A DNA stretch of 64,000 nucleotides, from assembly GCA_964404925.1 (NCBI GenBank), contig CAYOLW010000001.1, forward strand, positions 2,106 through 66,105, in the 5' to 3' direction. The stretch comes from an uncultured Candidatus Saccharibacteria bacterium. GTDB taxonomy: Bacteria; Patescibacteriota; Minisyncoccia; Phycocordibacterales; UBA9973. This document shows positions 3,377 to 25,902 of this stretch, in pieces. How positions within the stretch are numbered: the stretch's first letter is position 1; every line of letters starts with the position of its first letter. The notes beneath the pieces were generated by a model. That model did no database searches. It was given only the letters and a program-made list of their open reading frames with translations, and had not been told where the DNA came from. Position numbers and translations under genes: made by a program.

Positions 3377-5422
3377 ATGCAACACTTAGAAGGACTGAAC
3401 CCTAAACAAAAAGAAGCGGCATCTCATGTGTCTGGACCACTTCTTATCGTAGCTGGAGCTGGTGCAGGTAAAACCAAAACTATAGTACACAGAATTGTTA
3501 ATCTGGTTAAACAAGGCGTGAAACCCGAAGAAATACTGGCTGTGACTTTCACCAACAAGGCTGCTAAAGAAATGCGGGAAAGAGTGGAAAAAGAATTTCA
3601 CAAAAATGCCAGTGAACAGAGTGGTGTGCCGTTTGTTTCAACGTTTCATTCTCTCGGAGTGTTTATCATCAAAGAAAATGCCCCTATGCTGGGGCTTACG
3701 AAACATTTTTCTATATTAGATGAGGGTGATAGCGTTTCACTGGTGAAAGAAATAGTTAAAGAATTCGGTATTGATCCAAAACAGTATGACCCAAAAAAGA
3801 TTAAGGGAATTATTTCACGAGAAAAGGGTAAGTTTGTTAATCAAAGTGATTATGCTGAAAAAGCACTTAACCACGCCGGTGGGCGGGCAGGTTTCGGCAG
3901 CGGTATTGAAAATATTGTCGCCCGTGTTTGGGAAAAATATGAAAGCAAAAAGAAAGCAGAAAATTCATTGGATTTTGATGACCTATTAGTGAAGGCAACA
4001 GAACTACTGATTAATCATGAGGATATACGAGAACGCTACCAAAATAGATGGCAATATGTGCATATCGATGAGTATCAGGATACAAACGAAGTGCAGTACA
4101 GACTTTCAAAAATATTGGCTGAAAAAAATAAAAATATTTGTGTAGTAGGTGATGCTGATCAGAATATTTATTCTTGGCGTGGAGCAAACTTAAAAAATAT
4201 TTTGAGTTTTGAACGCGACTATAAAGATGCAAAAGTTGTACTGCTCGAAGAGAATTATCGTTCAACGCAAAACATATTAGCTGCCGCAAATGAAATAATT
4301 GAGAAGAATCAATTCCGTCCAGAAAAAAATCTTTTTACCAAAAATGAGGAAGGGGAGAAGATATCAATGTATGAAGCGCTAGATGAATCAGACGAGGCAG
4401 AATTTGTGGCAACAAAAATTTTGGAGTTATTAGACGAAGGAAAGCTTAGAGATTTTTCGAGTGGTCTGGTTGAGGGCGCACAGCACAAAGACACAAGCGC
4501 GCCCGACCCAAGGACCCGAGAAAAATCTGCTAAGCTTTCCGAAGTCGCTATCTTGTACAGAGCAAATTTTCAGTCACGAATTTTAGAAGAATCCATGCTA
4601 CGGTACAACATTCCATACCAAGTGCTGGGAGTAAAGTTCTTTGAACGTAAAGAAATAAAAGACACACTAGCCTACCTACGCGCAGCACTCAATCCTGAAA
4701 GTTTATCTGATATAAAAAGAATTATTAATTTCCCAGCTCGAGGAATTGGTAAAGCCAGTTTAGCAAAAATTTTTGCTGGACAGAAAAATGATTTGCCAAT
4801 TAAAATGCAAATTAAACTGCAGAACTTTTATGAACTTCTAGAAGACATCAAAAATGCAATTTTAGAAAACAAAGTTTCAGAGGTTATTAAATATGTAATT
4901 AAAAAGTCTGGGATAGAGGCAGAGTTGCTGGAAGGAGGAGATGAAGAAATGGAGAGACTTGAGAACATTAAAGAATTGGCAACACTTGCACTCAAGTACG
5001 ATAATCTGGAAAACGGATTAGGTGTTGAGAAATTACTTGAGGATGCAGCACTGGCAAGTGACCAAGATTCATTAATAATTAACCGGGAGCAAAAACAAGA
5101 AGTGAATGCGGTTAAACTAATGACTGTCCACGCAGCTAAAGGATTGGAGTTTGATTATGTTTTTATCGTAGGACTAGAGGATGGACTGTTCCCAAACCAA
5201 CGTGCTGGAGAAGTAAAAAACGGAGAGGATGCTGAAGAAGAACGTCGATTGTTTTATGTGGCACTTACTCGGGCTCGAAAAAAAGTATATTTATCTTTTG
5301 CAAACTACCGTACCATATTTGGCTCAAGACAGATCAATGCACCGTCCGAATTCCTCAGTGATATATCACAAGATTTAATCCAAAGAGAACGTGGTAATAT
5401 ATTAAAGACAATATATTTGTAA
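3377..5422 (+). CDS. uvrD: ATP-dependent DNA helicase of the UvrD/PcrA/Rep family.
   Basis: Walker A GAGAGKTKT is near the N-terminus. UvrD-family motifs include TFTNKAAKEM, the DEYQDTN Walker B/DExx motif, VGDADQNIYSWRGA, LEENYRST and the C-terminal VALTRARKKVYLS. Confidence 0.85.
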   Translation: MQHLEGLNPKQKEAASHVSGPLLIVAGAGAGKTKTIVHRIVNLVKQGVKPEEILAVTFTNKAAKEMRERVEKEFHKNASEQSGVPFVSTFHSLGVFIIKENAPMLGLTKHFSILDEGDSVSLVKEIVKEFGIDPKQYDPKKIKGIISREKGKFVNQSDYAEKALNHAGGRAGFGSGIENIVARVWEKYESKKKAENSLDFDDLLVKATELLINHEDIRERYQNRWQYVHIDEYQDTNEVQYRLSKILAEKNKNICVVGDADQNIYSWRGANLKNILSFERDYKDAKVVLLEENYRSTQNILAAANEIIEKNQFRPEKNLFTKNEEGEKISMYEALDESDEAEFVATKILELLDEGKLRDFSSGLVEGAQHKDTSAPDPRTREKSAKLSEVAILYRANFQSRILEESMLRYNIPYQVLGVKFFERKEIKDTLAYLRAALNPESLSDIKRIINFPARGIGKASLAKIFAGQKNDLPIKMQIKLQNFYELLEDIKNAILENKVSEVIKYVIKKSGIEAELLEGGDEEMERLENIKELATLALKYDNLENGLGVEKLLEDAALASDQDSLIINREQKQEVNAVKLMTVHAAKGLEFDYVFIVGLEDGLFPNQRAGEVKNGEDAEEERRLFYVALTRARKKVYLSFANYRTIFGSRQINAPSEFLSDISQDLIQRERGNILKTIYL

Positions 5423-5431: not shown

Positions 5432-5536
5432 CACGAGATATAAATCTTTTCACGGTACGAAGTTTTTGAAGCTTAAAAACTTCTGCAACGCTCGGCCCGT
5501 CGGCCTCGCGACCCCTAAAAAAGATTATATCTCGTG
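5432..5536 (+). ncRNA. Structured intergenic element, copy A (~105 nt). It has a long outer stem with a single bulge and an inner hairpin, and it ends 11 nt before the rsmA start codon.
   Basis: The outer arms cacgagatataaatctttt and aaaagattatatctcgtg are complementary. The inner hairpin is gaagttttt-gaagctt-aaaaacttc. The second copy at 42573..42675 carries compensatory substitutions in both stems. Confidence 0.5.
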
Positions 5537-5547: not shown

Positions 5548-6336
5548 ATGCATAAAGCAAAAAAATCACTTGGGCAAAATTTTCTTAAATCGGAAGCGGC
5601 CTTACGCGCAATAATTGAAGCTGGAGAAATAAAAAATACTGACACTATTCTCGAGATAGGACCTGGTAAGGGTGCCCTCACAGAGAGACTACTGGAAAAA
5701 GCAGGGAAGGTACTTGCTGTTGAGAAAGATCAAGATTTGATTTTATTCTTGCAAGAAAAATTTAGTGAGGAAATAAAAACCAAAAAACTAATTTTAATAG
5801 AAGGAGATATTTTAGATATAGAAATAAAAGAAAATAAATATAAAGTTATTGCCAATATCCCATACAACATCACCGGTGCAATTTTAAAAAAGTTTTTGTC
5901 TGGAGATAGTCAGCCAGAATTAATGGTTCTTTTAGTGCAGAAAGAAGTGGCAGAGAGAATTGTAACTAGAGATGGTAAAGAAAGCTTGCTTTCTATATCG
6001 GTCAAAGCGTACGGAGAACCCAAGTACATAACCAAGGTAGCCGCCAGGTATTTTAGCCCAGCACCAAAGGTAGACTCAGCTGTGATAAAAATAAGCAATA
6101 TTTCAAAAAATATTTTTACACAAGGAAAGGTTAGCGAACAAGTGTTCTGGGAATTAGTGCGAGCTGGTTTCGCACACAAAAGGAAAAAGTTAATTGGCAA
6201 CCTAAAAACCAATGACAAAAGTACTAACTGGGAAAGAATTTTTGAAAAAACTGGAATCAAAATAGACATTAGACCAGAAAAAGTATCTGTGGAAGAATGG
6301 GTGGCTATTTGCATCAACAAAAATATTGGTAATTAA
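5548..6336 (+). CDS. rsmA: 16S rRNA (adenine1518/1519-N6)-dimethyltransferase RsmA/KsgA.
   Basis: The N-terminal KSLGQNFL motif and SAM-binding LEIGPGKGALT are present, along with the NIPYNIT motif. Length is typical at 262 aa. Confidence 0.9.
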   Translation: MHKAKKSLGQNFLKSEAALRAIIEAGEIKNTDTILEIGPGKGALTERLLEKAGKVLAVEKDQDLILFLQEKFSEEIKTKKLILIEGDILDIEIKENKYKVIANIPYNITGAILKKFLSGDSQPELMVLLVQKEVAERIVTRDGKESLLSISVKAYGEPKYITKVAARYFSPAPKVDSAVIKISNISKNIFTQGKVSEQVFWELVRAGFAHKRKKLIGNLKTNDKSTNWERIFEKTGIKIDIRPEKVSVEEWVAICINKNIGN

Positions 6337-7856: not shown

Positions 7857-10691
7857 ATGGATAGACAAATGCAAAGCAGTATATTCAAAAACATAGTATC
7901 GGCAATGCTGGTTGCACTTTTTGCTTTTGCGCCAATCCTACAAGTAAAAGAAGCCTTAGCACAATCACAGGGTTCATATAGTTATAGTTCAGGGGGTAAT
8001 GCTAGTGGAGGACTCAAGGGTTATGTAAAAGGTCTAGCTCCCGCAATTGCCCAACTTCCATTATGCCAGAAAGCATTAACAGGTCCAGTTAAAAACATGT
8101 TTAAAGGTATTATAAATAAACTTGGAAAAAAAACTGTAGAAAAAATTTTTAGAAGAAAACTGGAAGAAAAATTGGCTGCTCAACAACAGATAAAAGTTGT
8201 AAACCAGGTGGACAATAAAAAACAAGATAAATTATTGTCAAATGCAAAATCACACAATGAAACCGATAGAGAAGCAAACGACAACGACACTTGTTATAAA
8301 TCAATCGGTCGTATGGTGGTTAAAATGATTTTACAGAAAATAACCTTAAGTACTGTAGAATGGATAAAGAATGGTTTTAATGGTGGACCAGCTTTTGTTC
8401 AAAACCCTGGCAGATTCTTTAAAAATATTGCAAAAGAAGAAGTATTGAAATTCGGCATAGAGTTAAATGCTGGAGCTAATTGTCAGGCAGTTTTCTCTGG
8501 AGATATTACTGGTACGAGTGGTGAAAACGATATAAGTAAATGTATATCACCTTTTGCCAAAGCCTATATGATTGGTTTAGCTGAAACATATAATAAAAAG
8601 TTTTCTGATAATGCTAGGTATTCTTTAAACGAACTTATTGCTAATACTACACCTGAGTACACGGCAGCTAGTTTCTCGGCCGATTTTTCGGCTGGTGGAT
8701 GGAACGCCTGGACAGCCATGACAGAAACACCGGCGAATAACCCTGTTGGTTTTACTGTTATATCTGACATAGAAATAGGCAGGAGAACAGATGGTACAAG
8801 TAAATCAACTGCTGAACAAAAGAAAGAAGCCCTAGAACAGTCTCGTGGTTTCCTTGGAGATTATCGTTGTGCTGATCCAGAAGGTCTAACCCAAGAACAA
8901 GACCGAGAGGAACAAGCCAAACCTGAACCAGACCCGGCTAGATTATGTAAACGTTGGGAATATGTTACCCCCGGAGAAACTGTTGCAGAAGCGGCCACAA
9001 AACTTGTTAACTACCAAGATAACAATCTATTAAAAGCCGAAGATTTAAATGACGCAGTAGCTGCTATTGTAGACGCTTTGATAAGTAGATTAATGGGTGA
9101 TGTTATTAATTATGGCCTAGCAGAGTTTTCAGATGAGGGTGCTGATGGTGATTTGATTATCAACAGTTATGCTATAAATGGTAATTATGAGATTGGCCAG
9201 GCTGAAAAAGACTTTCCTCAACACCTGCAAAGCGAGGGGTGGTTAACGGAGCATCCTAATTTTAATATTCGTACAGACTTAACTCAAGCAATAATAGATG
9301 AGCAAAGAACCTATGTAGAAAAACTAGAAAAACAAAACGAATCTCTTGAGAGGTCTATACTCGGAGCTAAACAAGCTGATTATTGTTTACCAGGACCTTC
9401 ATATGATGTTTATACCTCTATTTCTGATACAGATTTGTTTACTAGTTTTAATGATTTTAGTAGTGGTTTTTTAAAAGGTCGTCAAGAATTAACGGAATTT
9501 GCTCTACAATTTAATCAGTGGACAGCTTTCCAAGTAGCTAATGCTAATGGCTTATTTGTTAATAAAGAAAGAATTGCTAAAAAATTAATAGCAACCTATT
9601 TAGGGGTTAACTTTGGAGTACATGTATATGGTGCATATGGTTATTCAAACGAGGAAGATACAAACAGTAGAAACCAAGACCAGGTTTTAAACAAAGAAGA
9701 TATTCTTGGTTTGCAAAGAAATATATTTACTAGCTACCAAGTTTTAATGCACAATATTTATTTCAATGGTGCAAAATCTATAGCGCCAATGCCTTTAGTA
9801 ACTAAAGAAATAAGAAGTGAGTTAAGTAATGTAGGAGCATATCAGGATATAATTAATGAAAATGATGAAATAATTGCTTTAAAAAGATCTGTAATTCAAC
9901 GTTTAGCAGTAATAAAAAACCTCATAGAGGATTTAGGTCCGGTACCTGAACCAAATGACTCTAATTTTATAGAATACGAAGAAGCAATTAAACCCATAAT
10001 CCAAGATTTTGGTCGATTAACAAATGATATGGTAACAGGTGACGATGTAGCTCAAATAGATACAACGCTCAAAGAAACAGAGGACAAAGAAAAATATATT
10101 TTTGAAGATTTGTTAGAGGCATGTGAGCGTGAAATGCTTGATGTTTATGAAAATGACAAAGAGACATATAGCAGGTTTTGGCGAAGACAACCATATAAAG
10201 AACCAATTTTATATTTATATGGCGACAATGTAGGTGTAGATTACATAAGTGTTACAAACCTGAATGTACCAAAAATACCTCAGCAGCCAGACCACAATTC
10301 ATATGATCCCCATTATCATACACAGTGGAGTGAACAAGCTATCAAAAACTGGAATAGAAACGATATGTTTGCTTATGGTAGTTTTTATTGGAACTACTGG
10401 GTACGACCACACGAGGGAGGAGATGCATTTAATCCTAACGATCCAAAAACCCCTAATCCTCCAGATTTAGTAAAAATAAAAAGTAATTTACAAACAACCT
10501 GCCCTGAGTTTATAGATGTTGTATACTTCTCTTACCCTGGAACCAATGAAGGTCCTACAGGAGAAGAAAAAGGTCAGTTACCAAAAGATATTGAAGGTCT
10601 TGAAGCTGATGGACGAGGATACTCAATAAATTATGGAGATAATATTTGTGGTGTTTTGCATACCATTGAAGACCGAGCTAATATATACTAA
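7857..10691 (+). CDS. Large secreted hypothetical protein (944 aa).
   Basis: The N-terminal signal peptide is IVSAMLVALFAFAPILQVKEALAQ. No transmembrane core is apparent and no family is recognised. Confidence 0.5.
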   Translation: MDRQMQSSIFKNIVSAMLVALFAFAPILQVKEALAQSQGSYSYSSGGNASGGLKGYVKGLAPAIAQLPLCQKALTGPVKNMFKGIINKLGKKTVEKIFRRKLEEKLAAQQQIKVVNQVDNKKQDKLLSNAKSHNETDREANDNDTCYKSIGRMVVKMILQKITLSTVEWIKNGFNGGPAFVQNPGRFFKNIAKEEVLKFGIELNAGANCQAVFSGDITGTSGENDISKCISPFAKAYMIGLAETYNKKFSDNARYSLNELIANTTPEYTAASFSADFSAGGWNAWTAMTETPANNPVGFTVISDIEIGRRTDGTSKSTAEQKKEALEQSRGFLGDYRCADPEGLTQEQDREEQAKPEPDPARLCKRWEYVTPGETVAEAATKLVNYQDNNLLKAEDLNDAVAAIVDALISRLMGDVINYGLAEFSDEGADGDLIINSYAINGNYEIGQAEKDFPQHLQSEGWLTEHPNFNIRTDLTQAIIDEQRTYVEKLEKQNESLERSILGAKQADYCLPGPSYDVYTSISDTDLFTSFNDFSSGFLKGRQELTEFALQFNQWTAFQVANANGLFVNKERIAKKLIATYLGVNFGVHVYGAYGYSNEEDTNSRNQDQVLNKEDILGLQRNIFTSYQVLMHNIYFNGAKSIAPMPLVTKEIRSELSNVGAYQDIINENDEIIALKRSVIQRLAVIKNLIEDLGPVPEPNDSNFIEYEEAIKPIIQDFGRLTNDMVTGDDVAQIDTTLKETEDKEKYIFEDLLEACEREMLDVYENDKETYSRFWRRQPYKEPILYLYGDNVGVDYISVTNLNVPKIPQQPDHNSYDPHYHTQWSEQAIKNWNRNDMFAYGSFYWNYWVRPHEGGDAFNPNDPKTPNPPDLVKIKSNLQTTCPEFIDVVYFSYPGTNEGPTGEEKGQLPKDIEGLEADGRGYSINYGDNICGVLHTIEDRANIY

Positions 10692-10696: not shown

Positions 10697-13600
10697 ATGT
10701 TTAAACTAAAAACAAAAATTTTATTATCTATCGCGCTATTGTTAACAACAATACCTATAACCACCTTAGCAGCTTTATATGTTGAGGTTATACCAGTAAC
10801 ACAAAAAAATTTAACGAGTGCAACATTGGTTGGGGTACTAATGGATGATGCTTTTCCAACAGGTGTAAGTACTGAGTATGTAAAATTTAGATATACCACA
10901 ACATCCAGTACTTCATGTGCAAACATGACAACCGAAACAGCAGTACAAACAATAAATTTAGATTTCCAATTACATGAATTTTATAATTTTCAACAACAAT
11001 TAAATTCACTTACTCCACACACTAAATATTACTTTTGTGCTGTAGCTTCTAGTGAAGCAGATTTTTCTGCAAACGTTCTTTATAGTGGAATAAGAGATTT
11101 CACAACAGAACTGCCTCCAGACTTGGCAGATAATGTTGTGACAGGTACCGCAAGTAATATAACACAAAACGGTGCAACAATATATGGAGAAATTTACAAT
11201 GATCACAGCACTCCTATATTTGGAAAATTTAAATATTCAGAAAATTATTCTGTTAGTTGCGCATCATTACCTAATGCTATAAACACACCAGTTCAACCTC
11301 CTGGTGGTGTTGGTGCATCATTGTCTCTTAATTTTTCACACACGTTAACTAACCTAAAAAGCAGCACCACATACTCTTATTGTGCTGTCGGTGATACTAA
11401 CTCTGATTTTCCAAATGCAATTTATGGAGAGGTTAAAGTATTTACTACGCCACCTTCTGCTTCTGGTAATCCAGAAGATATTGGACCAGTTGATACGCAA
11501 GAATCTACGGAAATGGATGACAATGAAGTTACTTTGCAAGGTAATTATTCAGGGGGGGCACCTGGTTTTGCATATTTTAGATTAACAAGTGCTACTGTGC
11601 CTCCTCTTTTTTGTAATGATATTTATGGTTCAGATATGATTGGTATAACCTCTAATGAACCAGACCCTATTGGGTATACAACTGGCGGAGATTTTTCTGT
11701 ACATGTTAACGGACTTGAACCAGAAACAACATATTTTTATTGTGCTATTGTTTCTAACAATGCGCTAACAACAAAATTAAATAAATTAACCTATAGGCCT
11801 CAAATAAAATATGGATCAGTTAAATCATTTAGAACTTTACCTTGTTTAACTTGTAATATTACACAAGTAACAACACTTGGTTCAAATGTAATTGATTCAC
11901 AAAGCGTCAATTTAAAAGGTTCTTACAGAACAAGCAGGCCTGTAAAAATATATTTTGAGTATAGTAAAGATTTTGATGTAAGTACCCCGCCCACAAGTGG
12001 TAATGTTTGGATTCCAACAAACCCACCAAAACTTGGAGGTTTTAATTCTTATGGTAACTATAATTTTTTACTTACTGGACTTGATAGCAATACTAAATAC
12101 AGTTTCAGAATAGTTGGAGAATTAGCTATTGGTGGTGAAATAATCTACGGATCTACTCTAGACTTTACAACAGATGCTTATGATGGTGTTGACCCTATAA
12201 TAACAGAAGACCCTGTAGATGATGTTCCAGTTGAACCAGGTGGAGAAGGTGGAGGTGATGATAATTGTCCAGCTGGAACAATAGGTATATTTCCTGATTG
12301 TACTGTTGGTGAAATAGGCTGTCCAGCAGGATATGAAGGAGTGCCACCAGATTGTGTTAATCTGGGAGGAGGAAGCGGGGATGATGACGCACCGGTTGTA
12401 GAAGTAACAGCTGATCCAATATTTGTTGATCCCGGACAGTCTTCTACTATAACTTGGACTTCTACTAATGCGACGTCTTGTGTTTTAAACGGATACGACA
12501 TACCAACATCAGGATCTGCTGATACTGGTGCTCTCAATACGAGTAAATCGTATTCAGTAATTTGTACAGGACCGGGTGGAGTTGGTTCTGATAATGCTCA
12601 AGTCTACGTAAACATAACAGGCGGAGGTGGGGGTGGTGACATTATCTGGGTTAAAGCTTTGGCTGCACCAGTTTTTGTCACAACAAACAGTTCCTCTGTT
12701 GTATCATGGCAATCAAGCGGTGCAGAATTTTGTGAATCTGGTGGACATGGAAATGGTACTAGCGGTTCTTTTAACACTGGACCACTTACTAGTTCAATGT
12801 CCTACACAATTTCTTGTAGTGGACAATCTGGCAGTGCAGCAAGCACTGCATACATAGAAACACATGATCCTGTTACTCCACCATCTTGTTTCGCAGTACC
12901 ACAAACCCAGTCACTACAATGTCCTGCTGGACAGGTAGGTCTGATCTTACAATCTCGCAGTTCAACTTGTCCTGATCCAAACGGTTCTCCTGTTTGGTCA
13001 AATTGGGAGACAGTGACCAACTCTTGTCAGAGTTCAAGTGGTGGTCCAACTCCACCATCTTGTTTCGCAGTACCACAAACCCAGTCACTACAATGTCCTG
13101 CTGGACAGGTAGGTCTGATCTTACAATCTCGCAGTTCAACTTGTCCTGATCCAAACGGTTCTCCTGTTTGGTCAAATTGGGAGACAGTGACCAACTCTTG
13201 TCAGAGTTCAAGTGGTGGTCCAACTCCACCATCTTGTTTCGCAGTACCACAAACCCAGTCACTACAATGTCCTGCTGGACAGGTAGGTCTGATCTTACAA
13301 TCTCGCAGTTCAACTTGTCCTGATCCAAACGGTTCTCCTGTTTGGTCAAATTGGGAGACAGTGACCAACTCTTGTCAGAGTTCAAGTGGTGGTCCTGGAG
13401 GACCAGGTAGTGGAGTGTTTCCACCGGGACCAGGTAATCCATGGAGCCCTACTGGACCCGGAGGCCCTGGCGGCCCCAATGGTAATGGCGGTACAAACCC
13501 AACCCTACCACAAGGACCAGATAACGATGGTGATGGACTTGGTAATCCAAACGATGATGATACAGACGGGGACTGGGATCCAAATGGAACAGATACAGAC

Positions 13601-14239
13601 GATGATGGTGATGGGATTCCTGATTTAGTTGATGCGACTCCAAACGGACCTGGAAATTCTGATGATTTAGACGGTAATGGAGTAGGTAATGACAAAGACA
13701 ATGATATTGATGGTGATGGTGTACCCAACTATCTAGACAACGATACTGATGCAGATGGTATTCCAAATGCTACAGATTCAGACGATGATGGTGATGGGAT
13801 TCCTGATTGGCTTGACCCTTTACCAAAAGGTCCACACGGAGATAAGGTTGGAGTTATTTTGGGGGTAGGGGATGAGGCCATACCACCTTCGGACGCAATC
13901 GTTCATTATAACGAAGGTGTAGAGACTGTTTTTGCTAGACAAATCAGAAATCGCAACAAACTTTCAGAGAAGTTAGGATATTCAGGCAGAGGCAACCTAG
14001 AATCATTTGCTCAAAATATGGCTCATACACTCTCTCGATATTACTTTGGTTATGTTGACGAAAGCGGCAAAGAAGTGCGTGTGTCAGTACCTGATGTTTC
14101 AGCATATGAGTTGAGGATTGTTGGCAACAAATTAGCTGTTTATGAATATTATCGAAACAAAATAATAGATATACGAGTGCAAAGCATCCAATTCAAGAGT
14201 AAGAATCCGTACGAATATTATTTCCAGAAAAGGTTTTAG
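10697..14239 (+). CDS. Giant surface protein or adhesin (1180 aa). It has a signal peptide, repeated Ig/FN3-like modules, three identical 58-aa Cys-containing tandem repeats, thrombospondin-type-3-like Ca-binding Asp-rich repeats and a C-terminal globular domain.
   Basis: The signal peptide is LLSIALLLTTIPITTLAA. Recurrent module endings are YYFCAV, YSYCAVGD, YFYCAI and YSFRIV...FTT. The DxDxDGxxDxxD-type repeats are DNDGDGLGNPNDDDTDGDWDPNGTDTDDDGDGIPD and related copies. Confidence 0.6.
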   Translation: MFKLKTKILLSIALLLTTIPITTLAALYVEVIPVTQKNLTSATLVGVLMDDAFPTGVSTEYVKFRYTTTSSTSCANMTTETAVQTINLDFQLHEFYNFQQQLNSLTPHTKYYFCAVASSEADFSANVLYSGIRDFTTELPPDLADNVVTGTASNITQNGATIYGEIYNDHSTPIFGKFKYSENYSVSCASLPNAINTPVQPPGGVGASLSLNFSHTLTNLKSSTTYSYCAVGDTNSDFPNAIYGEVKVFTTPPSASGNPEDIGPVDTQESTEMDDNEVTLQGNYSGGAPGFAYFRLTSATVPPLFCNDIYGSDMIGITSNEPDPIGYTTGGDFSVHVNGLEPETTYFYCAIVSNNALTTKLNKLTYRPQIKYGSVKSFRTLPCLTCNITQVTTLGSNVIDSQSVNLKGSYRTSRPVKIYFEYSKDFDVSTPPTSGNVWIPTNPPKLGGFNSYGNYNFLLTGLDSNTKYSFRIVGELAIGGEIIYGSTLDFTTDAYDGVDPIITEDPVDDVPVEPGGEGGGDDNCPAGTIGIFPDCTVGEIGCPAGYEGVPPDCVNLGGGSGDDDAPVVEVTADPIFVDPGQSSTITWTSTNATSCVLNGYDIPTSGSADTGALNTSKSYSVICTGPGGVGSDNAQVYVNITGGGGGGDIIWVKALAAPVFVTTNSSSVVSWQSSGAEFCESGGHGNGTSGSFNTGPLTSSMSYTISCSGQSGSAASTAYIETHDPVTPPSCFAVPQTQSLQCPAGQVGLILQSRSSTCPDPNGSPVWSNWETVTNSCQSSSGGPTPPSCFAVPQTQSLQCPAGQVGLILQSRSSTCPDPNGSPVWSNWETVTNSCQSSSGGPTPPSCFAVPQTQSLQCPAGQVGLILQSRSSTCPDPNGSPVWSNWETVTNSCQSSSGGPGGPGSGVFPPGPGNPWSPTGPGGPGGPNGNGGTNPTLPQGPDNDGDGLGNPNDDDTDGDWDPNGTDTDDDGDGIPDLVDATPNGPGNSDDLDGNGVGNDKDNDIDGDGVPNYLDNDTDADGIPNATDSDDDGDGIPDWLDPLPKGPHGDKVGVILGVGDEAIPPSDAIVHYNEGVETVFARQIRNRNKLSEKLGYSGRGNLESFAQNMAHTLSRYYFGYVDESGKEVRVSVPDVSAYELRIVGNKLAVYEYYRNKIIDIRVQSIQFKSKNPYEYYFQKRF
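12875..13396 (+). repeat. Perfect 3 x 174-bp in-frame tandem repeat inside the adhesin gene. Each unit encodes ...PPSCFAVPQTQSLQCPAGQVGLILQSRSSTCPDPNGSPVWSNWETVTNSCQSSSGGPT.
   Basis: The unit boundary actccaccatcttg recurs at 12875, 13049 and 13223. The three units are identical at every base I compared. Confidence 0.9.
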
Positions 14240-14313: not shown

Positions 14314-17049
14314 ATGAATTTTTCAAAGAAAAAAATTGGTAGAAAAATAGTGTTGTGGACACTGGTCTTGTACTTTGTATTTTTTCCTATTGCTAACACC
14401 TACGCTCAAAACTCAGGAACAACTGGTACCGTCAACAACAACACATATGCAACCAGTGGCGAAACATTGCTTCTTAATAAAGATTTAAGCACTGTAACCA
14501 ATACAACAGCATCGCTTAGTTTTACCGCTAGTACTACTCGCGAAGACCAATACGAACCTCTTTTAGTCAGAATTTATAAAGATAGCAATTTAAACGATGG
14601 AGATAATTCCGGGGTTTGGGATTATTCTACTAATACTGTACCAGCCGGCGTAGAAGAAGCAGTTTTGTGGCAAACAGCTGTTTTAGCCAGTAATACACCG
14701 GGACAAATAAAAGAAGTTACTTTTAGTTCCCTGGAACCAAACACTAATTACTTTGTTGTTGCTTATTTGTATAATGTTAATAAAATTGGTCTGCCATTTT
14801 TCTCTGGAGATTGGGATACTTTAATTACGGTAAATCTAACACTGACAACAGCCAAGGCTGTGGATACACTAGGTACTGTTAATAGTGTGGGTGGATCTAA
14901 TTATCACAATGACCCAGGTCCGGATTTAGGATGTTCTCCTTTATTTTTTGCTACACTAAAAAATTGTTTAGGTGCATTGTTTTACTACGTACTCTATGAA
15001 CCAGCAGCAGCCTTGGCACGACTTGCAGCGCACTTCTTGGACTTCTTTGTTTACTATGCAACTAATAGTGATTCATATAGATCAGAATTCGTACTAAAAG
15101 CTTGGGGGGTTGTAAGAGACGTTTCTAATATGTTTTTCATTGTGGCGCTTATGGTTTTAGCAATACGGATGATACTCGATATAGACAAGGCTCACGTTAA
15201 AAAAACATTGTCTGTCATAATACTAGTAGCACTAGTTATTAACTTTAGTTTATTTATTACTCGAGTGGTTATTGATGCTTCAAACATTCTAGCTAAAGTT
15301 TTCTACAACAACATTTCTTCTGTGGATGCATATGGTAACCCAACAGTTGGTGAAAGTGGAGAAAAATCTATAACCATAGGACTAACTAAGGTCATAGACC
15401 CAGTTAAAATAGTCAATAAACCACAAGACAACCTGAAGAACTTTATTTTTGTGGTATTTCTTTGTTTCTTCCTTATGCTTGGAATGGCATGGATATTCTT
15501 TACCAGCGCTTTGTTTTTCGTAGGGCGGGTAATATCACTATGGTTCTCAATGATTTTTGCGCCACTGGCCTTTATATCATACGCAGTGCCATTTAAAATA
15601 CCTGAATATGGACACACCGAATGGTGGAGTGGTTTATTCAAGGCTGCCTTTATGGCGCCATTGTTTGTATTTTTCTTGTATATAACAGCTTTGTTTGGTG
15701 GTACACTCGGCGCAATACCAGGAGACATTGCAAATGCAGACGATTGGTTTATGTCAGTAGTAGGGGAACTTGTACCATTCATACTTATATTCGGATTATT
15801 AAAAGCAGCTCAAAAAATAGCTAAAGAATATTCAGGTAAATTTGGCGATATGGTAAGTAAAACTGGTGCTGTATTGGGTACATTGGCCCTCGGCGGTGCA
15901 GGACTCGCAACCGCTGCTTTAGGTAGAAAATTCATAGGTTCACAAATTGCTAAAGGTTCACAAAGTCAGAAAGCAATGGATTGGGCGGGGCATAGAATGA
16001 AGTTTGATGAACAACTTAATCAATGGAAGGCCTCAAGCAAAAAAACTCGTGGAGCTAAACCAACCTGGGACCAATATTCTAAGAGTAATGGTGTTGATAG
16101 AAATAATATGGGCTTACGCGAAAGACTGGGAGCTCGTGCTAATTATTCTAAACTAAAAGTTAAGAGTGTTGAGCATGCTCGCCACGAACTTGAAGAAACA
16201 AAGAAGAAGCTTGGTTATGAAGGGGTTAATAACAATCAACTAGGTGGACAAGCTCAAAAAGATATTAAAGATCAATTCTTAAAAGACCATAAGTCAGAGT
16301 TTGAGAACTCAGTTAGGAACGGTAACGAGGTTCTGGTTGTTAATGTAAACGGAATAGACACTATTGTAAAAGGCCAAAATGAATACGAGGCAACCATGCG
16401 AAAAGTACTAAGTAAAGAAGTTTTGGGTGATGGCGATAAGACAAAAGAAGCTGAAGCAATTAAAGACGGTGATGCCATGTATAAACGTGTTGATAAAATA
16501 GACCCTGCAACAGGCCAAGTAATGAAAGACTCTCGTGGAAGGAAACTCACCGAAGATAAACTAGTATTAACTGATCAGGGTAGGAAGAAGGTAGAAAATA
16601 GACTGCATACAAGCTACAACAAAGAGGTTGGTGAGAAGGTCAAGAAAATGTCTGAAGTTAAGTATGAACATCTAGAAACAGAAGCAAAAATGAAATTAGG
16701 GGTTAAAGACAGACTGTCTGCTAGATCTGATGTTGGTACATATGACACCAGGAATCTGTCTCAGATAATTACCAAAATGTCTGCCAAAGATAAAATGTGG
16801 ATGGGAGGTATCCTTGGGTTAATGGTTGGAGGCATACGTGGCGGATTTAAGTCATTAAAACTAGACATGGGCAAAGGCCAAGGCGATTGGAAAAAGGACC
16901 TCGGTAGTACTATTACAGAAGCCTTGAAGAAGGCACCATCTGATTTTAAAGTTAATGTCAATCTAAGTGGTGGAGGAGGTGGAGGGGGAGGACATGGTGG
17001 CGGCGGCGATCATGGCGGTGGACACGGGGGAGGACATGGAGGACACTAA
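14314..17049 (+). CDS. Polytopic membrane protein (911 aa) with a secreted N-domain, a multi-TM core, a long charged cytoplasmic tail and a Gly/His-rich C-terminus. The topology is VirB6/TrbL/TcpH/PrgH-like.
   Basis: A signal/anchor sequence is followed by at least six hydrophobic helices between about aa 200 and 520. The protein sits two genes upstream of VirB4. The C-terminus is GGGGGGGHGGGGDHGGGHGGGHGGH. Confidence 0.45.
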   Translation: MNFSKKKIGRKIVLWTLVLYFVFFPIANTYAQNSGTTGTVNNNTYATSGETLLLNKDLSTVTNTTASLSFTASTTREDQYEPLLVRIYKDSNLNDGDNSGVWDYSTNTVPAGVEEAVLWQTAVLASNTPGQIKEVTFSSLEPNTNYFVVAYLYNVNKIGLPFFSGDWDTLITVNLTLTTAKAVDTLGTVNSVGGSNYHNDPGPDLGCSPLFFATLKNCLGALFYYVLYEPAAALARLAAHFLDFFVYYATNSDSYRSEFVLKAWGVVRDVSNMFFIVALMVLAIRMILDIDKAHVKKTLSVIILVALVINFSLFITRVVIDASNILAKVFYNNISSVDAYGNPTVGESGEKSITIGLTKVIDPVKIVNKPQDNLKNFIFVVFLCFFLMLGMAWIFFTSALFFVGRVISLWFSMIFAPLAFISYAVPFKIPEYGHTEWWSGLFKAAFMAPLFVFFLYITALFGGTLGAIPGDIANADDWFMSVVGELVPFILIFGLLKAAQKIAKEYSGKFGDMVSKTGAVLGTLALGGAGLATAALGRKFIGSQIAKGSQSQKAMDWAGHRMKFDEQLNQWKASSKKTRGAKPTWDQYSKSNGVDRNNMGLRERLGARANYSKLKVKSVEHARHELEETKKKLGYEGVNNNQLGGQAQKDIKDQFLKDHKSEFENSVRNGNEVLVVNVNGIDTIVKGQNEYEATMRKVLSKEVLGDGDKTKEAEAIKDGDAMYKRVDKIDPATGQVMKDSRGRKLTEDKLVLTDQGRKKVENRLHTSYNKEVGEKVKKMSEVKYEHLETEAKMKLGVKDRLSARSDVGTYDTRNLSQIITKMSAKDKMWMGGILGLMVGGIRGGFKSLKLDMGKGQGDWKKDLGSTITEALKKAPSDFKVNVNLSGGGGGGGGHGGGGDHGGGHGGGHGGH

Positions 17050-18090: not shown

Positions 18091-18519
18091 ATGCAATTTA
18101 AAGTTCCACAATTTTTAGATATTGAAGACAAGATATTCGGCCCATTTACTTTTAGCGAATTCGTTTATTTAGCAGGAGGGGCAGGTCTGTGTTATGTGCT
18201 TTTTAAATTGCTTGGTTTTTTTGTAGGTTTTGTACCGATACTTTTGGTTGGTGGATTTTCTTTGGCTTTAGTTTTCTATAGACCAAACGGTAAACCTTTT
18301 ATAAATATGGTTGAGAATAGTATTAGTTACTATACTCAAAACAGATTATATGTATGGAAAAGACAAGACAGAAGTGATAATAAAAACAAACAACCAATAA
18401 ACAATGCAGTGTTAACAGAAAATGAACACATAGTTAAATTAAACAAAAGTAAACTTAAGGATTTATCATGGAGTTTAGATGTACTTGATGTTAAAAACAA
18501 AAGTGAAGAAAATATTTAA
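18091..18519 (+). CDS. Small two-TM membrane protein. Its size and its position immediately upstream of VirB4 are VirB3/PrgI-like.
   Basis: Two hydrophobic helices are YLAGGAGLCYVLFKLLGFFVGF and VPILLVGGFSLALVFY. The assignment rests on position alone, without sequence-family support. Confidence 0.3.
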   Translation: MQFKVPQFLDIEDKIFGPFTFSEFVYLAGGAGLCYVLFKLLGFFVGFVPILLVGGFSLALVFYRPNGKPFINMVENSISYYTQNRLYVWKRQDRSDNKNKQPINNAVLTENEHIVKLNKSKLKDLSWSLDVLDVKNKSEENI

Positions 18520-19176: not shown

Positions 19177-21012
19177 ATGGGATTATTTGATTCAATTTTA
19201 GGTGGTGACAAAACGGACAACAATAAAAAGCCGACAATATTGCCGATACTACCTGAGGAAATACACGAATCAGCGGCACTAGAACTCCAAGACGTAATTG
19301 CGCCTTCAGCTTTAAAAATAAATCCTAAATCTATCAATCTGGGGGATAAAATAGCTCGAACCTTCTTTATTATTTCTTATCCTAGATATTTGGCCGATAA
19401 CTGGTTTTCTCCAATTATTAACTTGGATCAAATTTTTGATGTATCAGTATATGTAAATCCAGTAGACACTTCTTTGGCAATGCGTCAGTTCCAAAAGAAA
19501 GTGGCTGAGGTAGAAAGCCAGATCAATACTCGTGAATCCAAAGGTATTGTACGTGACCCAATGCTAGACACAGCTTACCAGGATTTAGAAGAACTACGAG
19601 ATAAACTTATTCAAGCTCAAGAAAAGATGTTCGATGTAGGTATTTACATAACTATCTATGCTAATAATGAAATGGAGCTTTTTAAGGTTGAGAACGAAGT
19701 AAAATCCATTTTAGAATCAAAATTAATATACATTAAACCAGCCCTTTTCCAGCAAGAAGAAGGTTTTATGAGCGTGGTGCCTGTAGATACCGATAGGCTT
19801 AATATTACCCAGAGATTAAATTCTGAACCACTTTCTTCTGTGTTTCCTTTTATTTCTTTTGACTTAACTTCAGATAAAGGAATATTGTATGGTGTCAATA
19901 GACACAATTCTTCTTTGGTTATTTTTGATCGATTTTCTCTTGAGAACTATAACTCTGTTACTTTTGCTAAATCAGGTAGTGGTAAAAGTTATGCTACAAA
20001 ACTAGAAATTTTACGTAGTCTAATGTTTGATATTGATGTCATTGTCATAGACCCTGAAAGGGAATATGAATTCTTGTCTGAGGCTGTAGGAGGAAGGTAC
20101 TTCAACATCTCTCTTTCCTCAGATCACCACATAAACCCATTTGATTTACCTGTTCCCAGAGAGGACGAAACACCAGAAGACGTATTACGCTCAAATATAA
20201 TTAACTTGGTTGGTTTATTTAGATTGATGCTAGGTGGACTAACACCCGAAGAAGATGCTTTAGTTGACCGGGCGATATCTGAAACATACGCTATTAAAGA
20301 CATTACACCAGACTCTGATTTCACTAATATTGAACCTCCACTTTTGTCTGACTTTGAAATGGTTCTTTCTGGAATGGAAGGTTCTGAGTCTGTTGTGCAG
20401 AGATTGGTAAAATATACCAAAGGTTCTTGGTCCACGTTCATTAACCGACCGTCCAACGTAGATATCAACAAAAAGTTTGTTGTTTTCTCTGTTCGTGATA
20501 TGGAAGATGAATTAAAGCCAATCGCCATGTATATAGTTACTCACTATATATGGAATACAATCCGTAAAAACCTAAAGAAAAGACTTTTAGTAGTGGACGA
20601 GGCTTGGTGGATGATGAAATCTGAAGACACAGCATCTTTCTTGTATTCACTAGCTAAAAGAGGCCGCAAATACTATCTAGGTCTGGCTACAATAACTCAA
20701 GACGCTGCGGACTTTATGAAATCTCCGTACGGTGTACCTATTGTTACCAACTCATCAATCCAAATACTCCTCAAACAATCCCCAAGTACCATTGAAGTGC
20801 TCCAAAAGATATTTAATCTAACCGATGAAGAAAAATATCTTTTACTTGAATCTGGGGTAGGGGAAGGTATATTCTTTGCCGGTTTGAAGCATGTTGCTAT
20901 TAAGGTTGTAGCTTCTTACACAGAAGATCAAATCATTACTTCAGACCCATCACAAATATTGGCTATCAAAAAATCAAAAGACGATTTTGAAGAAGTGTCA
21001 CAAGGAAAGTAA
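19177..21012 (+). CDS. virB4: Type IV secretion/conjugation ATPase VirB4/TrbE/CagE-like (AAA_10/DUF87 type), C-terminal ATPase part.
   Basis: Walker A is AKSGSGKSY and Walker B is LLVVDEAW. The arrangement of RGRKYYLGLATITQD and the C-terminal TEDQI region is typical of VirB4-family ATPases. Confidence 0.85.
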   Translation: MGLFDSILGGDKTDNNKKPTILPILPEEIHESAALELQDVIAPSALKINPKSINLGDKIARTFFIISYPRYLADNWFSPIINLDQIFDVSVYVNPVDTSLAMRQFQKKVAEVESQINTRESKGIVRDPMLDTAYQDLEELRDKLIQAQEKMFDVGIYITIYANNEMELFKVENEVKSILESKLIYIKPALFQQEEGFMSVVPVDTDRLNITQRLNSEPLSSVFPFISFDLTSDKGILYGVNRHNSSLVIFDRFSLENYNSVTFAKSGSGKSYATKLEILRSLMFDIDVIVIDPEREYEFLSEAVGGRYFNISLSSDHHINPFDLPVPREDETPEDVLRSNIINLVGLFRLMLGGLTPEEDALVDRAISETYAIKDITPDSDFTNIEPPLLSDFEMVLSGMEGSESVVQRLVKYTKGSWSTFINRPSNVDINKKFVVFSVRDMEDELKPIAMYIVTHYIWNTIRKNLKKRLLVVDEAWWMMKSEDTASFLYSLAKRGRKYYLGLATITQDAADFMKSPYGVPIVTNSSIQILLKQSPSTIEVLQKIFNLTDEEKYLLLESGVGEGIFFAGLKHVAIKVVASYTEDQIITSDPSQILAIKKSKDDFEEVSQGK

Positions 21013-21023: not shown

Positions 21024-22037
21024 ATGCAAAGCATGTTTAATAAAAATATGTTAAGAAAAACATCTCTATTAATCTTGGTTTTGTCTTTTATTGTTTCCTT
21101 TACAGGAGTGAACAATGTTTTTGCACAACAAATTCAAGATAACGATATATTGATGAGCGTATATCCCAAATATCCAAAACCAGGGGATAATGTTCGTGTC
21201 TCAATTAACAGTTATACTGTTAATCTTGATAAGTCGTTTATTGTTTGGTCTTTAAATGGGGAAGAAAGGTCTAGGGGAATCGGTAAAAAGACATTTTCTT
21301 TTGACTTAGAAAAAACAAATAGTCAAAATCAGGTTACAGCTTCTATTGATTTGGTGGGTGGTATTACTGTTGTTAAAAGTAATACTATTGTTGCTTCGGA
21401 TATAGACATGCTTTGGGAAGCGGTAGATTCATACGTACCACCATTTTATAGAGGCAAGGCCCTTGGTGTACAAGACGGTAGTTTCAAGATTGTTGCTATA
21501 CCGAGTATTTTGTCCTCTGGTGGAAAAGTAAGCCCTAACAACCTTTCATATGTTTGGAAAAAAGACGGTGATGGCCAAGTAGGCGCTTCTGGTTTTGGTA
21601 AAAATTACCTTATCTTTACTAAAAGCTACCTTGATTCAGAAAACGAAATAGAGGTTGAAGCATCAGATATTGAAGGCAAAGTAAAAACAGGTAATAAAAT
21701 TATGGTGACAGGTTTAAAGAAACCAAAGGTTGTCTTATATAAAAAAGACTCTAAAATAGGCTTTAGATTAAACCAAGCACTGAGTGATAATTATAGTATT
21801 TCCGAACCAACAACAATAATTGCAGTTCCGTACTTCTTTTCTTTTAGCAATATCAATTCAGAGGATATGGCTTTTACCTGGTCAGCGGGCGGTAAACAAA
21901 TACAACCAAACAGAAATAAAAATGAAATAACAGTTATTCCACCCAAAGAAAGGGGTGGTACTGATATTTCATTAGCAGTAGAAAAAGCTAATTCTTTCTA
22001 CCAGAGTGTTAAAAAAAGGATCAATGTTGATTTTTAA
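21024..22037 (+). CDS. Secreted hypothetical protein (337 aa), predicted beta-rich.
   Basis: The signal peptide is LLILVLSFIVSFTGVNNVFAQQ. Confidence 0.45.
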   Translation: MQSMFNKNMLRKTSLLILVLSFIVSFTGVNNVFAQQIQDNDILMSVYPKYPKPGDNVRVSINSYTVNLDKSFIVWSLNGEERSRGIGKKTFSFDLEKTNSQNQVTASIDLVGGITVVKSNTIVASDIDMLWEAVDSYVPPFYRGKALGVQDGSFKIVAIPSILSSGGKVSPNNLSYVWKKDGDGQVGASGFGKNYLIFTKSYLDSENEIEVEASDIEGKVKTGNKIMVTGLKKPKVVLYKKDSKIGFRLNQALSDNYSISEPTTIIAVPYFFSFSNINSEDMAFTWSAGGKQIQPNRNKNEITVIPPKERGGTDISLAVEKANSFYQSVKKRINVDF

Positions 22038-23100
22038 TGAAAAAATAAAAAAGGTTACTGCTTTTATTTTTATACTGTTCTTTTGTGTTGGTTTTATAAT
22101 AAAAACACCTGTAATTATAGCCCAGGACCCTTGCACAACAGATTCAGATGGTGATGGACTTGTGGATGGAATGGATCCAATAAATGATACAACCAGCCAA
22201 ACTAATCCAAATATAATAAATTGTAATGAATTACAAAACACTCAAAATGATAGCGATGTAACATACACACTACTCGAACCTATTGGTGATTTGAGTAAAT
22301 TTAATGCAACTCAACCTTGTCCTTTGGTTGATTATATTAATAAATTTATAAAAATATTCCTTGGTATTTGTGCTGCACTTGCTATGGTGATGATTGTTGT
22401 TGGGGGACTCCAATACATGACCAGTGAATTATTGTCTTCAAAAGAAGCGGGAGTTAAGCAAATTCAAGGCGCGGCTTTTGGTTTTATTATGGCACTGGCC
22501 GCTTATGCTATTTTAAACACCGTTAATGCTGATTTACTTAACTTCTGTCCACACATACCAGATGCAAAAGTAACAGTTGTTGAAGATATAAGTGACGAGG
22601 CAACCACCTTAACAGGTGGAGGTAAAGCAACATACCACCCATACAAAGCTTATTCTCCTAATAATGCTTGCCCAGGACAACCAGGTAAAGAAACAAGCAC
22701 TTGTGTAAAAATGAACACAACTAATTTACCTAAAAAATATGATCAGAGTTTAGAAAAAGACACTCTAGATAAAATGGTAATATTTGATAACATCATGCGT
22801 TCTAAAGGAATTGTATGGTATGTGACTGAAGGGTGGCCAGCATCTAGCTCACATAAATCTAGTTGTCATGGTAATGGAACATGCTTAGACTTAAATACAC
22901 CAAACGCAACACCAGAAACAGTTAAATTAATGATTGGCGGTTTAATAGCTGTTGGTATGTGCCCAAACTATGAAATTTTACAGTCTGGAGGTATTACCAG
23001 GGAACAACTTAATGCTATTGGTATTCCCGATGCACGTATTTGGGTTACCAAAGGTACAGGGGCTCATATACATGTTGTTAATGCTAGGTGTGGTAGTTAA
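22006..23100 (+). CDS. Membrane-anchored cell-wall peptidase. An N-terminal anchor and Asp-rich Ca-binding-like motif are followed by a pilin-like double hydrophobic helix and a C-terminal LAS/M15 (VanY-like) metallopeptidase domain.
   Basis: The M15/LAS signature S-x-H-x-x-G-x-[AC]-x-D appears as SCHGNGTCLD, and HxH appears as GAHIHV near the C-terminus. The TSP3-like motif is TDSDGDGLVDGMDP. The paired hydrophobic helices are FLGICAALAMVMIVVGG and AFGFIMALAAYAIL. The start may instead be the in-frame ATG at 22024. Confidence 0.5.
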   Translation: MLKKGSMLIFNEKIKKVTAFIFILFFCVGFIIKTPVIIAQDPCTTDSDGDGLVDGMDPINDTTSQTNPNIINCNELQNTQNDSDVTYTLLEPIGDLSKFNATQPCPLVDYINKFIKIFLGICAALAMVMIVVGGLQYMTSELLSSKEAGVKQIQGAAFGFIMALAAYAILNTVNADLLNFCPHIPDAKVTVVEDISDEATTLTGGGKATYHPYKAYSPNNACPGQPGKETSTCVKMNTTNLPKKYDQSLEKDTLDKMVIFDNIMRSKGIVWYVTEGWPASSSHKSSCHGNGTCLDLNTPNATPETVKLMIGGLIAVGMCPNYEILQSGGITREQLNAIGIPDARIWVTKGTGAHIHVVNARCGS

Positions 23101-24443: not shown

Positions 24444-24923
24444 CTAGATTTGCCCTACATACCTAATAACCACACGCCTATCGCGGCCAACACCATTTGA
24501 TTCTGTTTTTAAATCATTAGCGAGTGACAATATCTCATGTACAATCCTCCTGTCGTAGGCAGACATTGGCTCAAGCTCTATGCTTGATTTAAAGTACCTT
24601 GCTCGCTCTGCCATCATATGGACTAAACTTTTCAAAGTCTCAATCTTTTTCTTTTGAAAACCATTTATATCAACTACAATGTTTTCGTTTGGGGTTTTAC
24701 TTGTTGGATTTTTTGATTCAACGATCCTGCGAACAATATGATTAAGTGCTTGCAGCGCTTCTCCTTCGCGGCTTAGAAATGGGTGAGCATTATTAAGCTC
24801 AACAGAGAAACAGTGACCACCTAATTCATCGTCTAAAACACACTCAGTAACAACAACATTATCTGAAACGTTAGTTTTATCAATTAGTTCTTTGATTATT
24901 GTTTTTATTTCTTCTTTGTTCAT
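24444..24923 (-). CDS. jag: Jag/KhpB-like RNA-binding protein with an R3H domain.
   Basis: The gene lies downstream of yidC in the conserved rpmH-rnpA-yidD-yidC-jag order. The R3H-type motif is YDRRIVHEIL. Confidence 0.65.
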   Translation of the reverse strand: MNKEEIKTIIKELIDKTNVSDNVVVTECVLDDELGGHCFSVELNNAHPFLSREGEALQALNHIVRRIVESKNPTSKTPNENIVVDINGFQKKKIETLKSLVHMMAERARYFKSSIELEPMSAYDRRIVHEILSLANDLKTESNGVGRDRRVVIRYVGQI

Positions 24924-24927
24924 ATAT

Positions 24928-25656: not shown

Positions 25657-25692
25657 CCAACCATTCTATACTAAAAGAACAGAATTTCAAAG

Positions 25693-25902
25693 TTATGGCA
25701 CAGGATCTATATGGTTCTTTTGCCAAGGATGGCAACGCAAAATCCTAAAAAAGCTTAAAACTACACCTTTAAGTGCACCATGTTTTTGTATTGCTTCTTT
25801 TGCGTAACTTGAACAGGTGGGGTAAAAGACACAAGAGGGTTTTTTGAGCGGACTTATGTTTTTCTGATATAAATCAATTAATTTTATTAAGTATTTTTTC
25901 AA
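25693..25902 (-). CDS. yidD: Membrane protein insertion efficiency factor YidD.
   Basis: YYQKNISP...[23 protein letters not shown] matches the YidD hallmark CxFxPTCSxY. Confidence 0.8.

Follow-up and report, generated by a model that had tools for sequence, protein, structure and literature searches.

How did a gene of an uncultured Candidatus Saccharibacteria bacterium come to hold three practically identical copies of a 174-bp segment in a row, and what could these mean for the protein that it encodes? The gene lies in a stretch of 64,000 nucleotides (64 kb; assembly GCA_964404925.1, contig CAYOLW010000001.1, positions 2,106 to 66,105 of the forward strand), which was analysed as a whole and is called the window here. 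It encodes a protein of 1180 amino acids (aa) and occupies one particular place, the slot, in a locus for a type IV secretion system (T4SS). The array is probably real and arose very recently within this slot gene, when tandem amplification turned one ancestral unit into three and left the reading frame intact.

Tandem Repeats Finder placed the array at 12875-13395, with a period of 174 bp, 3.0 copies, 100% matches, no indels and a score of 1042, and reported it as the sole tandem repeat of the 64-kb window. The gene and the three units, the latter delimited by blastn and a repeat search, are located as follows.

10697-14239, forward strand: gene of the 1180-aa, putatively secreted multidomain protein (P0001), slot gene of the T4SS locus (open reading frame (ORF), translation)
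12875-13048, forward strand: repeat unit 1, consisting of the linker TPPS, a four-Cys module (C731-C777) and the linker QSSSGGP
13049-13222, forward strand: repeat unit 2, identical to unit 1 at 174 of 174 positions
13223-13396, forward strand: repeat unit 3, identical at 173 of 174 positions, the last base (13396) being different

The three identical 174-bp tandem repeats that an earlier note on this DNA had described in the gene were confirmed at 100% over 12875-13395, with 13396 as the only base that differs. This base is a T instead of an A, a synonymous change (CCA to CCT), and forms the boundary of the array. The perfect period of 174 holds over 521 consecutive bases and cannot be due to chance. 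No further copy of the unit was found elsewhere in the window, at either the DNA or the protein level. From one unit to the next the assembly reads GGTCCA followed directly by ACTCCACC, the junction-spanning string being GGTGGTCCAACTCCACC.

The array is in frame within the ORF. Each unit is translated as TPPSCFAVPQTQSLQCPAGQVGLILQSRSSTCPDPNGSPVWSNWETVTNSCQSSSGGP with four cysteines apiece, which is the 58-aa module that the earlier note had recognised. One unit comprises one complete module of about 47 aa together with its linker, and the hidden Markov model (HMM) of the module covers the units end to end (residues 728-784, 786-842 and 844-900, with a score of 105.3 bits at residues 728-784). 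An ORF with an ATG start on the opposite strand (12873-13442, reverse strand, 189 aa) was dismissed as a gene, having most likely arisen incidentally from the stop-free repeated sequence.

The frame is kept because 174 equals 3 × 58, each unit being 58 codons long, and as this always holds, the gene can be neither silenced nor activated when units are added or removed. Length or phase variation had been proposed for the array; the first was supported by the orthologues, which differ by 0, 2 or 3 modules or by an indel of 39 aa, and the second was not, a unit of 174 bp being 58 codons. The slipped-strand mechanism proposed along with it was not supported, since it concerns units of a few bases, and units of 174 bp are expected to change by unequal homologous recombination or replication template switching. 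A contingency locus, in which changes in repeat number turn the protein on and off by slipped-strand mispairing, would have in its favour that a perfect tandem repeat lies within a putative surface-protein gene. Whole-unit changes stay in frame, however, the array is internal to the ORF, and no homopolymer or short-unit tract was detected by Tandem Repeats Finder in or upstream of the gene. Slipped-strand phase variation is driven by tracts of 1-9 bp, and the 174-bp unit is far longer. This explanation can be regarded as extremely unlikely.

To place the identity of the copies in perspective, modules were compared within each of 146 proteins that contain at least two full ones. The best pair within a protein had a median identity of 46%, and only the protein from the window reached 100%. 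The next best pairs were 95%, 95%, 92%, 88% and 87% identical; the first three of these values indicate that recent module duplication recurs in the family. The array in the window is the freshest module duplication among the 146 proteins compared.

Orthologues of the protein come from metagenome-assembled genomes (MAGs) of Paceibacteria, and among T4SS slot genes the module is confined to those of this clade. The variable site is the junction between the second immunoglobulin-like (Ig-like) domain and an FPPGPGNPW linker, where 0, 2 or 3 modules are found among species. In one group (P0002, loci L001-L004) two modules are present, which are 55-59% identical to each other, each being 78-95% conserved between species. 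Others (P0003, P0004 of locus L005, and L027) have no module at the site and a Gly/Asn-rich filler in its place. A Gly/Asn-rich insert of 39 aa exactly at this site separates P0003 from P0166, although the two share 90% identity. The 0, 2 or 3 modules and the 39-aa insert identify the site as a length-variable linker. The low similarity between the two orthologue copies, combined with the conservation of each across species, argues against general concerted evolution, and with such diverged, old two-copy arrays in the relatives, recent amplification is the most fitting account of the three identical copies.

Of the two processes that the earlier note had left side by side, very recent amplification was therefore retained, and long-term homogenisation was not, the orthologue copies being 55-59% identical. 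Alternatively, the array might be old and its units kept uniform by ongoing gene conversion, perhaps because selection favours multivalent binding through identical units. This would account for the identity at synonymous sites as well, as strong homogenisation would give, and some surface proteins do retain arrays whose units are all identical. This course of events is nevertheless improbable: the modules of the sister clade, 55-59% identical and each conserved across species, show no homogenisation, the median of the best pairs in the family is 46%, and the linkers are identical too, for which recent duplication is the simplest cause.

Further sequences were sought that could show other states of the array. 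Length variants within 90% clusters (P0025 and P0170) had the same number of modules. A contig look-up with the exact protein returned nothing on record, a degenerate DNA pattern for the unit gave 0 matches in metagenome contigs, and protein-guided scans of metagenome and genome contigs retrieved nothing closer than about 65% identity. One of the loci with two modules, L004 (JAGXTH010000017.1), is a 5.2-kb contig binned as ‘Simkania sp.’ that carries the slot gene and the gene of the polytopic membrane protein next to it; this contig is probably mis-binned.

The slot genes of other lineages have tandem repeats of their own, independent and near-perfect in L007 and L015.

L007, 7065-7643: 306-bp in-frame repeat (102 aa), 1.9 copies, 97%
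L015, 6287-6454: 63-bp in-frame repeat (21 aa, WTGVYPNCTAPGGGSGNCPTG), 2.7 copies, 97%
L006, 6577-7715: 279-bp in-frame repeat (93 aa), 4.1 copies, 75%
L020, 7678-7869: 63-bp in-frame repeat (21 aa), 3.1 copies, 75%

The units in these four genes contain cysteines and are different from the four-Cys module. Their occurrence indicates that tandem duplication is habitual for the slot gene, which in turn makes it more likely that the repeat in the window is biological.

An alternative lies in the assembly. The true number of units might be two or more than three, or the copies might differ slightly, a loop in the graph having been unrolled by guess and small differences collapsed. At 522 bp for the array and 174 bp for the unit, both exceed typical short reads and k-mers, so that short reads give no direct count of the copies; the exact protein is found on a single NCBI contig, with no second sample; and it is the sole case of 100% identical copies among the 146 multi-copy proteins. 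Nonetheless, the unit-to-unit junction is present in the assembly, which implies at least two real copies, and the array is situated inside a contig of 286.6 kb, at neither an end nor a join. The phase of the repeat coincides with the boundaries of domain and linker, with the frame kept, and repeats of 92-97% identity occur in other assemblies, both of this module and in slot genes, which artefacts would not give. We consider an artefact or mis-estimate rather unlikely.

The origin of the block of modules was assessed through its composition. The local guanine-plus-cytosine (GC) content at the array is 0.45-0.48, compared with 0.37 for the window. At third codon positions (GC3) the unit has 0.26, the gene 0.21 and the neighbouring genes 0.23-0.30, the excess in GC of the unit being due to codon positions 1 and 2. 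Since its GC3 matches that of the gene, the DNA looks native. A foreign cassette that horizontal transfer had brought in, with a phage or a different bacterium as possible donor, and that was amplified afterwards, would fit the local GC content, the presence of the module on phage-like contigs and the identity of up to 61-67% with modules of unrelated proteins, against 47% with those of the orthologue. The rise in GC, however, stems from amino acid composition, an identity of about 50-60% over some 50 aa cannot resolve ancestry, and the presence of modules at this very site in the orthologous clade is in keeping with vertical inheritance. A foreign origin of the block was rejected on GC3 and is, taken together, very unlikely.

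With an amplification as the favoured explanation, the first step would have been a duplication with breakpoints in the linkers, after which the identical 174-bp units would have taken part in unequal homologous recombination or in template switching at replication. Each event would gain or lose one whole folded module with the frame kept, and would thereby alter the length, reach and valency of an extracellular stalk without switching expression. This stalk would span the distance from the distal beta-sandwich domains, which may contact the host cell, to the C-terminal domain, by which the protein presumably attaches to the cell or the T4SS. We infer the recombination mechanism, the role as spacer or in adhesion and the attachment to the surface through the C-terminus. 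At 1e-6 to 1e-7 substitutions per site per year, a range that we assume here, the array would be, very roughly, thousands to tens of thousands of years old.

Several points weigh against this explanation. The number of copies and their perfect identity rest on a single assembly, and a de Bruijn assembler can set the count of a loop from coverage and flatten small differences between copies. The module of the window is 47% identical to the orthologue's modules and 57-67% identical to modules of unrelated proteins, which is compatible with vertical descent and with independent insertion at the site. No homology was found that would point to adhesion, surface anchoring or interaction with the T4SS. 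Finally, a published survey reported no recognisable adhesins, and none PrgB-like, in the T4SS loci of Patescibacteria (PMC12102498).

What kind of domain was amplified? A structure prediction for the 58-aa unit, which the earlier note had recommended, gave a confident three-stranded beta fold with AlphaFold2. The mean confidence (predicted local distance difference test, pLDDT) was 86.6 when three sequences were used and 90.3 with 57; the strands occupy positions 8-14, 22-30 and 44-48. The module is predicted to be a three-stranded beta domain stapled by disulfides, for which the topology of the strands suggests the Cys pairs 1-3 and 2-4.

A profile of the module, built from the unit of the window and the two diverged copies of the orthologue P0002 (A1), was searched against 1.84 billion cluster representatives. 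It matched 515 proteins at E<=1e-3, 210 of them at E<=1e-10, usually with 2-11 diverged copies each. The singly spaced modules in these clusters, like the end-to-end HMM match of each unit, agree with one autonomously folding domain per unit. Re-scoring of the 150 best matches together with the window's protein and its homologues yielded 152 module proteins, all but one with 2-8 copies. The consensus of 301 modules is C-x-P-x2-[EQ]-T-[QR]-x3-C-P-x-G-x2-G-x-I-x-Q-x-R-x3-C-P-x(3-8)-W-x2-W-x3-S-N-T-C, in which C15, C50, G21 and W43 are 99-100% conserved and C31 96%. Three variants of the module had no match in Pfam at E<=10, none was found in NCBIfam at E<=1, and a search of PHROGs returned no family. 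Among solved structures, a sequence-profile search of the PDB and Foldseek comparison of two models with the PDB gave nothing below E of about 1. The module constitutes a widespread domain family that is absent from Pfam and NCBIfam.

Proteins with the module are of diverse kinds. It is present in type IVb pilin-like proteins with a PilS_N domain, one of which adjoins pilMNO, and also in a protein with Big_9/cadherin and FGE-sulfatase domains and in one with PG_binding_1. Plasmid pLGM of Ancylobacter pratisalsi encodes, in its tad locus, a TadG-related protein with a degenerate copy. Judged by their sequence families, these partner domains are of extracellular types. The module was likewise found on IMG/VR contigs and in one Caudoviricetes record, and the BFVD entry H6BJ76 matched it with a Foldseek E of 1.1e-5, a template modelling (TM) score of 0.85 and 37% identity. 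On the phage-like contig L033, the module protein P0175 (7271-8500) is encoded between giant Laminin_G_3 proteins and a phage lysozyme.

Module proteins of the P0019 type were seen on several phage-like contigs (L033, L034, L035, BFVD H6BJ76 and MW202481.1), and many of their relatives are on contigs of about 63-65 kb. This suggests a class of phage genomes using the module in a structural or host-recognition protein. The 120 relatives of P0019 that were listed are all without Pfam annotation, none being named beyond ‘hypothetical protein’.

Arrays comparable to that of the window are known from Gram-positive surface proteins, namely the G5-E repeats of Aap/SasG (Staphylococcus epidermidis) and the Rib/alpha-C repeats of group B streptococci. 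In these, as in the window, the in-frame unit equals one small extracellular domain and the units are very similar to each other at the nucleotide level. The Aap/SasG and Rib/alpha-C units form a stalk whose length follows the number of units and which is expected to change by homologous recombination, as proposed for the window, and copy-number polymorphism between strains is documented for them. The likeness does not extend to the domain itself: neither the sequence of the module nor, at a significant level, its predicted fold resembles G5, Rib or any family in Pfam, although Aap G5 structures did appear among the Foldseek matches in the PDB, far from significance (E of about 7). Unlike these units, it has four cysteines and is predicted to be disulfide-stapled, and it belongs to a bacterium of the candidate phyla radiation (CPR), in a gene of a T4SS locus.

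The arrays in PilS_N and TadG-related proteins and on phage-like contigs consist of the same module as that of the window, with profile E-values down to 1e-53, and are carried by pilin-like or phage structural proteins, but their copies are diverged (median best pair 46%), identical copies being confined to the protein from the window.

The thrombospondin type-1 repeat (TSR, PF00090) was considered as a relative of the module. It too is about 50 aa long, Cys-stabilised and three-stranded and has the motif WSxW next to a strand with a conserved Arg, and the module sits beside thrombospondin type-3 repeats in the same protein. The TSR, however, has six cysteines and an N-terminal WxxWxxW strand stacked on RxR, whereas the module has four and a single WxxW located C-terminal to the Q-x-R strand. 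No match of the module to PF00090 was obtained at E<=10 and no TSR was among the Foldseek results for the PDB. The assignment was rejected on the misfit of Cys count and motif order and on a probability of 11% in hhalign against TSR2-3 of human TSP-1.

The remainder of the 1180-aa protein is composed of the following parts.

10697-10774, forward strand: putative Sec signal peptide MFKLKTKILLSIALLLTTIPITTLAA, with no lipobox Cys (read from the translation by eye)
10775-12250, forward strand: about four Fn3-like / purple-acid-phosphatase-N-like beta-sandwich repeats (Pfam PF16656, E=8.3e-11, 42.7 bits, cut-off 30)
12257-12361, forward strand: two Cys loops CPAGxxGxxPxC at residues ~521-555, CPAGTIGIFPDC and CPAGYEGVPPDC (translation; invariant in the orthologue alignment A2)
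12383-12874, forward strand: two Ig-like domains of ~80-90 aa (...SSTITWTSTNATSC...), ending directly before the array (translation, conservation in orthologues)
13397-13513, forward strand: Gly/Pro-rich linker GGPGSGVFPPGPGNPWSPTGPGGPGGPNGNGG... (translation; kept in orthologues right after the variable site)
13514-13831, forward strand: Asp-rich thrombospondin type-3 (TSP3) calcium-binding repeats in three stretches (Pfam PF02412, E=3.1e-6, 27.2 bits, cut-off 25)
13853-14236, forward strand: C-terminal domain of ~125 aa (...ATPPSDAIVHYNEGVETVFARQI...YEYYFQKRF), found by phmmer as the very last part of the slot ORF in 21 loci, L003-L023 (E 1e-24 to 1e-49)

For the region 10775-12250 the Pfam fn3 model scored 24.4 bits, just under its cut-off of 25. 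The Ig-like region has only weak Pfam matches, and its fold is putative. The orthologue P0004 is named ‘thrombospondin type 3 repeat-containing protein’ by NCBI. Both the four-Cys module, in its CPAGxxG turn, and the amplified 21-aa unit of L015 are similar to the Cys loops at 12257-12361.

Given the signal-peptide-like N-terminus and the Fn3-like and TSP3 domains, which are of extracellular type, the protein is likely to be secreted. The term adhesin, used in the earlier note, is plausible for the product of a gene in a T4SS locus that combines a putative signal peptide with Fn3-like, Ig-like and TSP3 domains. No adhesin family matched the protein in Pfam or NCBIfam, and its translation has no LPXTG in the C-terminus and no recognised anchor. 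The C-terminal domain (...ATPPxDAIVRYHEGIETVFARQI...YEYYF) is the only part common to all slot proteins and had no Pfam match above noise and no PDB match. Extra partial copies of it were observed inside L022, L007 and L016, and in another ORF of L001 (3-1514, E=1e-7).

The slot gene is embedded in a conserved neighbourhood. From 3377 to 24442 the gene order is UvrD-KsgA-g138-g361-g944-slot-polytopic protein-g326-PrgI-g216-VirB4-...-T4SS pilin, and the part from UvrD to VirB4 is conserved in about 21 loci (L001-L023) from Paceibacteria, Nomurabacteria and MAGs labelled Saccharibacteria.

5548-6336: KsgA, upstream of the slot gene
7857-10691, forward strand: secreted protein of 944 aa (g944), function unassigned, fixed neighbour of the slot gene (synteny, 19 loci)
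14314-17049, forward strand: polytopic membrane protein of 911 aa that begins with an ectodomain and ends in a Gly/His-rich tail (six or more hydrophobic segments; synteny)
18091-18519, forward strand: PrgI (VirB3-like) T4SS component (Pfam PF12666, E=1e-6, 29.6 bits, cut-off 27)
19177-21012, forward strand: VirB4-type T4SS ATPase (Pfam PF19044 P-loop_TraG, E=1.1e-23, plus AAA_10 and DUF87)
22006-23100, forward strand: protein with a T4SS pilin (VirB2-like) domain (Pfam PF18895, E=3.9e-7, 30.5 bits, cut-off 26.6)
24444-29156: origin gene set directly downstream of the T4SS cluster, with Jag (R3H domain) and YidC on the reverse strand, followed by DnaA and DnaN

The 944-aa protein had no Pfam or NCBIfam family, and no family model matched the 911-aa polytopic protein; the position and topology of the latter fit a VirB6/PrgH-like protein, as which it may serve. 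Its Gly/His-rich tail (16960-17046, GGGGGGGGHGGGGDHGGGHGGGHGGH) may bind metal, and a longer, similar tail was noticed in the homologue of L027 (~4650-4797).

The T4SS locus of Patescibacteria has been described near dnaA and ksgA as chromosomal, relaxase-less and MPF-FATA-like (PMC12102498), and these systems, chromosomal and without relaxase, are thought to have been repurposed (PMC12102498, PMC12857230). In Southlakia epibionticum, the one species tested, the T4SS is essential for epibiotic growth (PMC10633639). With VirB4, PrgI and a VirB2-like pilin, and with KsgA and dnaA/dnaN nearby, the locus in the window matches the published one, and by gene order the repeat-bearing gene is a conserved member of it.

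Conservation of position is combined with variability of sequence. Slot proteins measure 431-1942 aa, the widest variation in length within the locus, and the median coverage of the window's protein by its homologues is 0.40, close to the 0.41 of the polytopic protein. Values of 0.8-0.98 were obtained for KsgA, g361, g944, PrgI and g216; for VirB4 the value was 0.69, this gene being cut off at the ends of several loci. The slot protein and the polytopic protein are by far the most variable members of the locus.

Genes of surface adhesins are located upstream of Gram-positive conjugative T4SS genes, e.g. those of PrgA/PrgB/PrgC of pCF10 (PMC12102498, PMC12857230). The arrangement is alike in that large secreted proteins are encoded just upstream of the genes for PrgI/VirB3 and VirB4 of an MPF-FATA-like T4SS. 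The slot protein differs from PrgB in having no homology to it and no LPXTG.

Elsewhere in the window, a direct repeat of 48 nucleotides, 88% identical, was observed between genes (5438-5485 and 42578-42625), one copy after the UvrD-like gene and the other after a gene ending at 42568. It contains a hairpin with a 9-bp stem, GAAGTTTTT-GAAGCTT-AAAAACTTC, and had no match in Rfam. Rfam and tRNA scans of the window detected two tRNAs only, neither of them near the array.

Taken alone, the array exemplifies in textbook fashion how the stalk of a surface protein lengthens when a domain is duplicated, and tandem repeats at the level of domains are already known. Beyond this, it brings to light a four-Cys domain family without annotation and a hypervariable, probably secreted protein built into the T4SS locus of Patescibacteria. 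The module, with at least 515 clusters and a confidently predicted fold, deserves the definition of a family. The identical units provide a simple marker, by PCR or long reads, for heterogeneity of populations in an uncultured lineage. As these T4SSs are without a recognised adhesin (PMC12102498), a quickly remodelled, probably secreted protein fixed in the locus is a concrete candidate for contact with the host.

More speculatively, and with considerable doubt on our side, the slot protein could be a component that is still missing from the essential, repurposed T4SS of Patescibacteria, namely the one for host recognition or adhesion. It would be docked by its C-terminal domain, and its distal part would be rebuilt rapidly by insertion of modules and tandem amplification, tuning reach or specificity for different host cells; the module would then be a new ‘reach’ domain common to pili, phage structural proteins and CPR surface proteins. 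If this is true, the three identical four-Cys modules would be a snapshot of the remodelling of a slot protein in progress.

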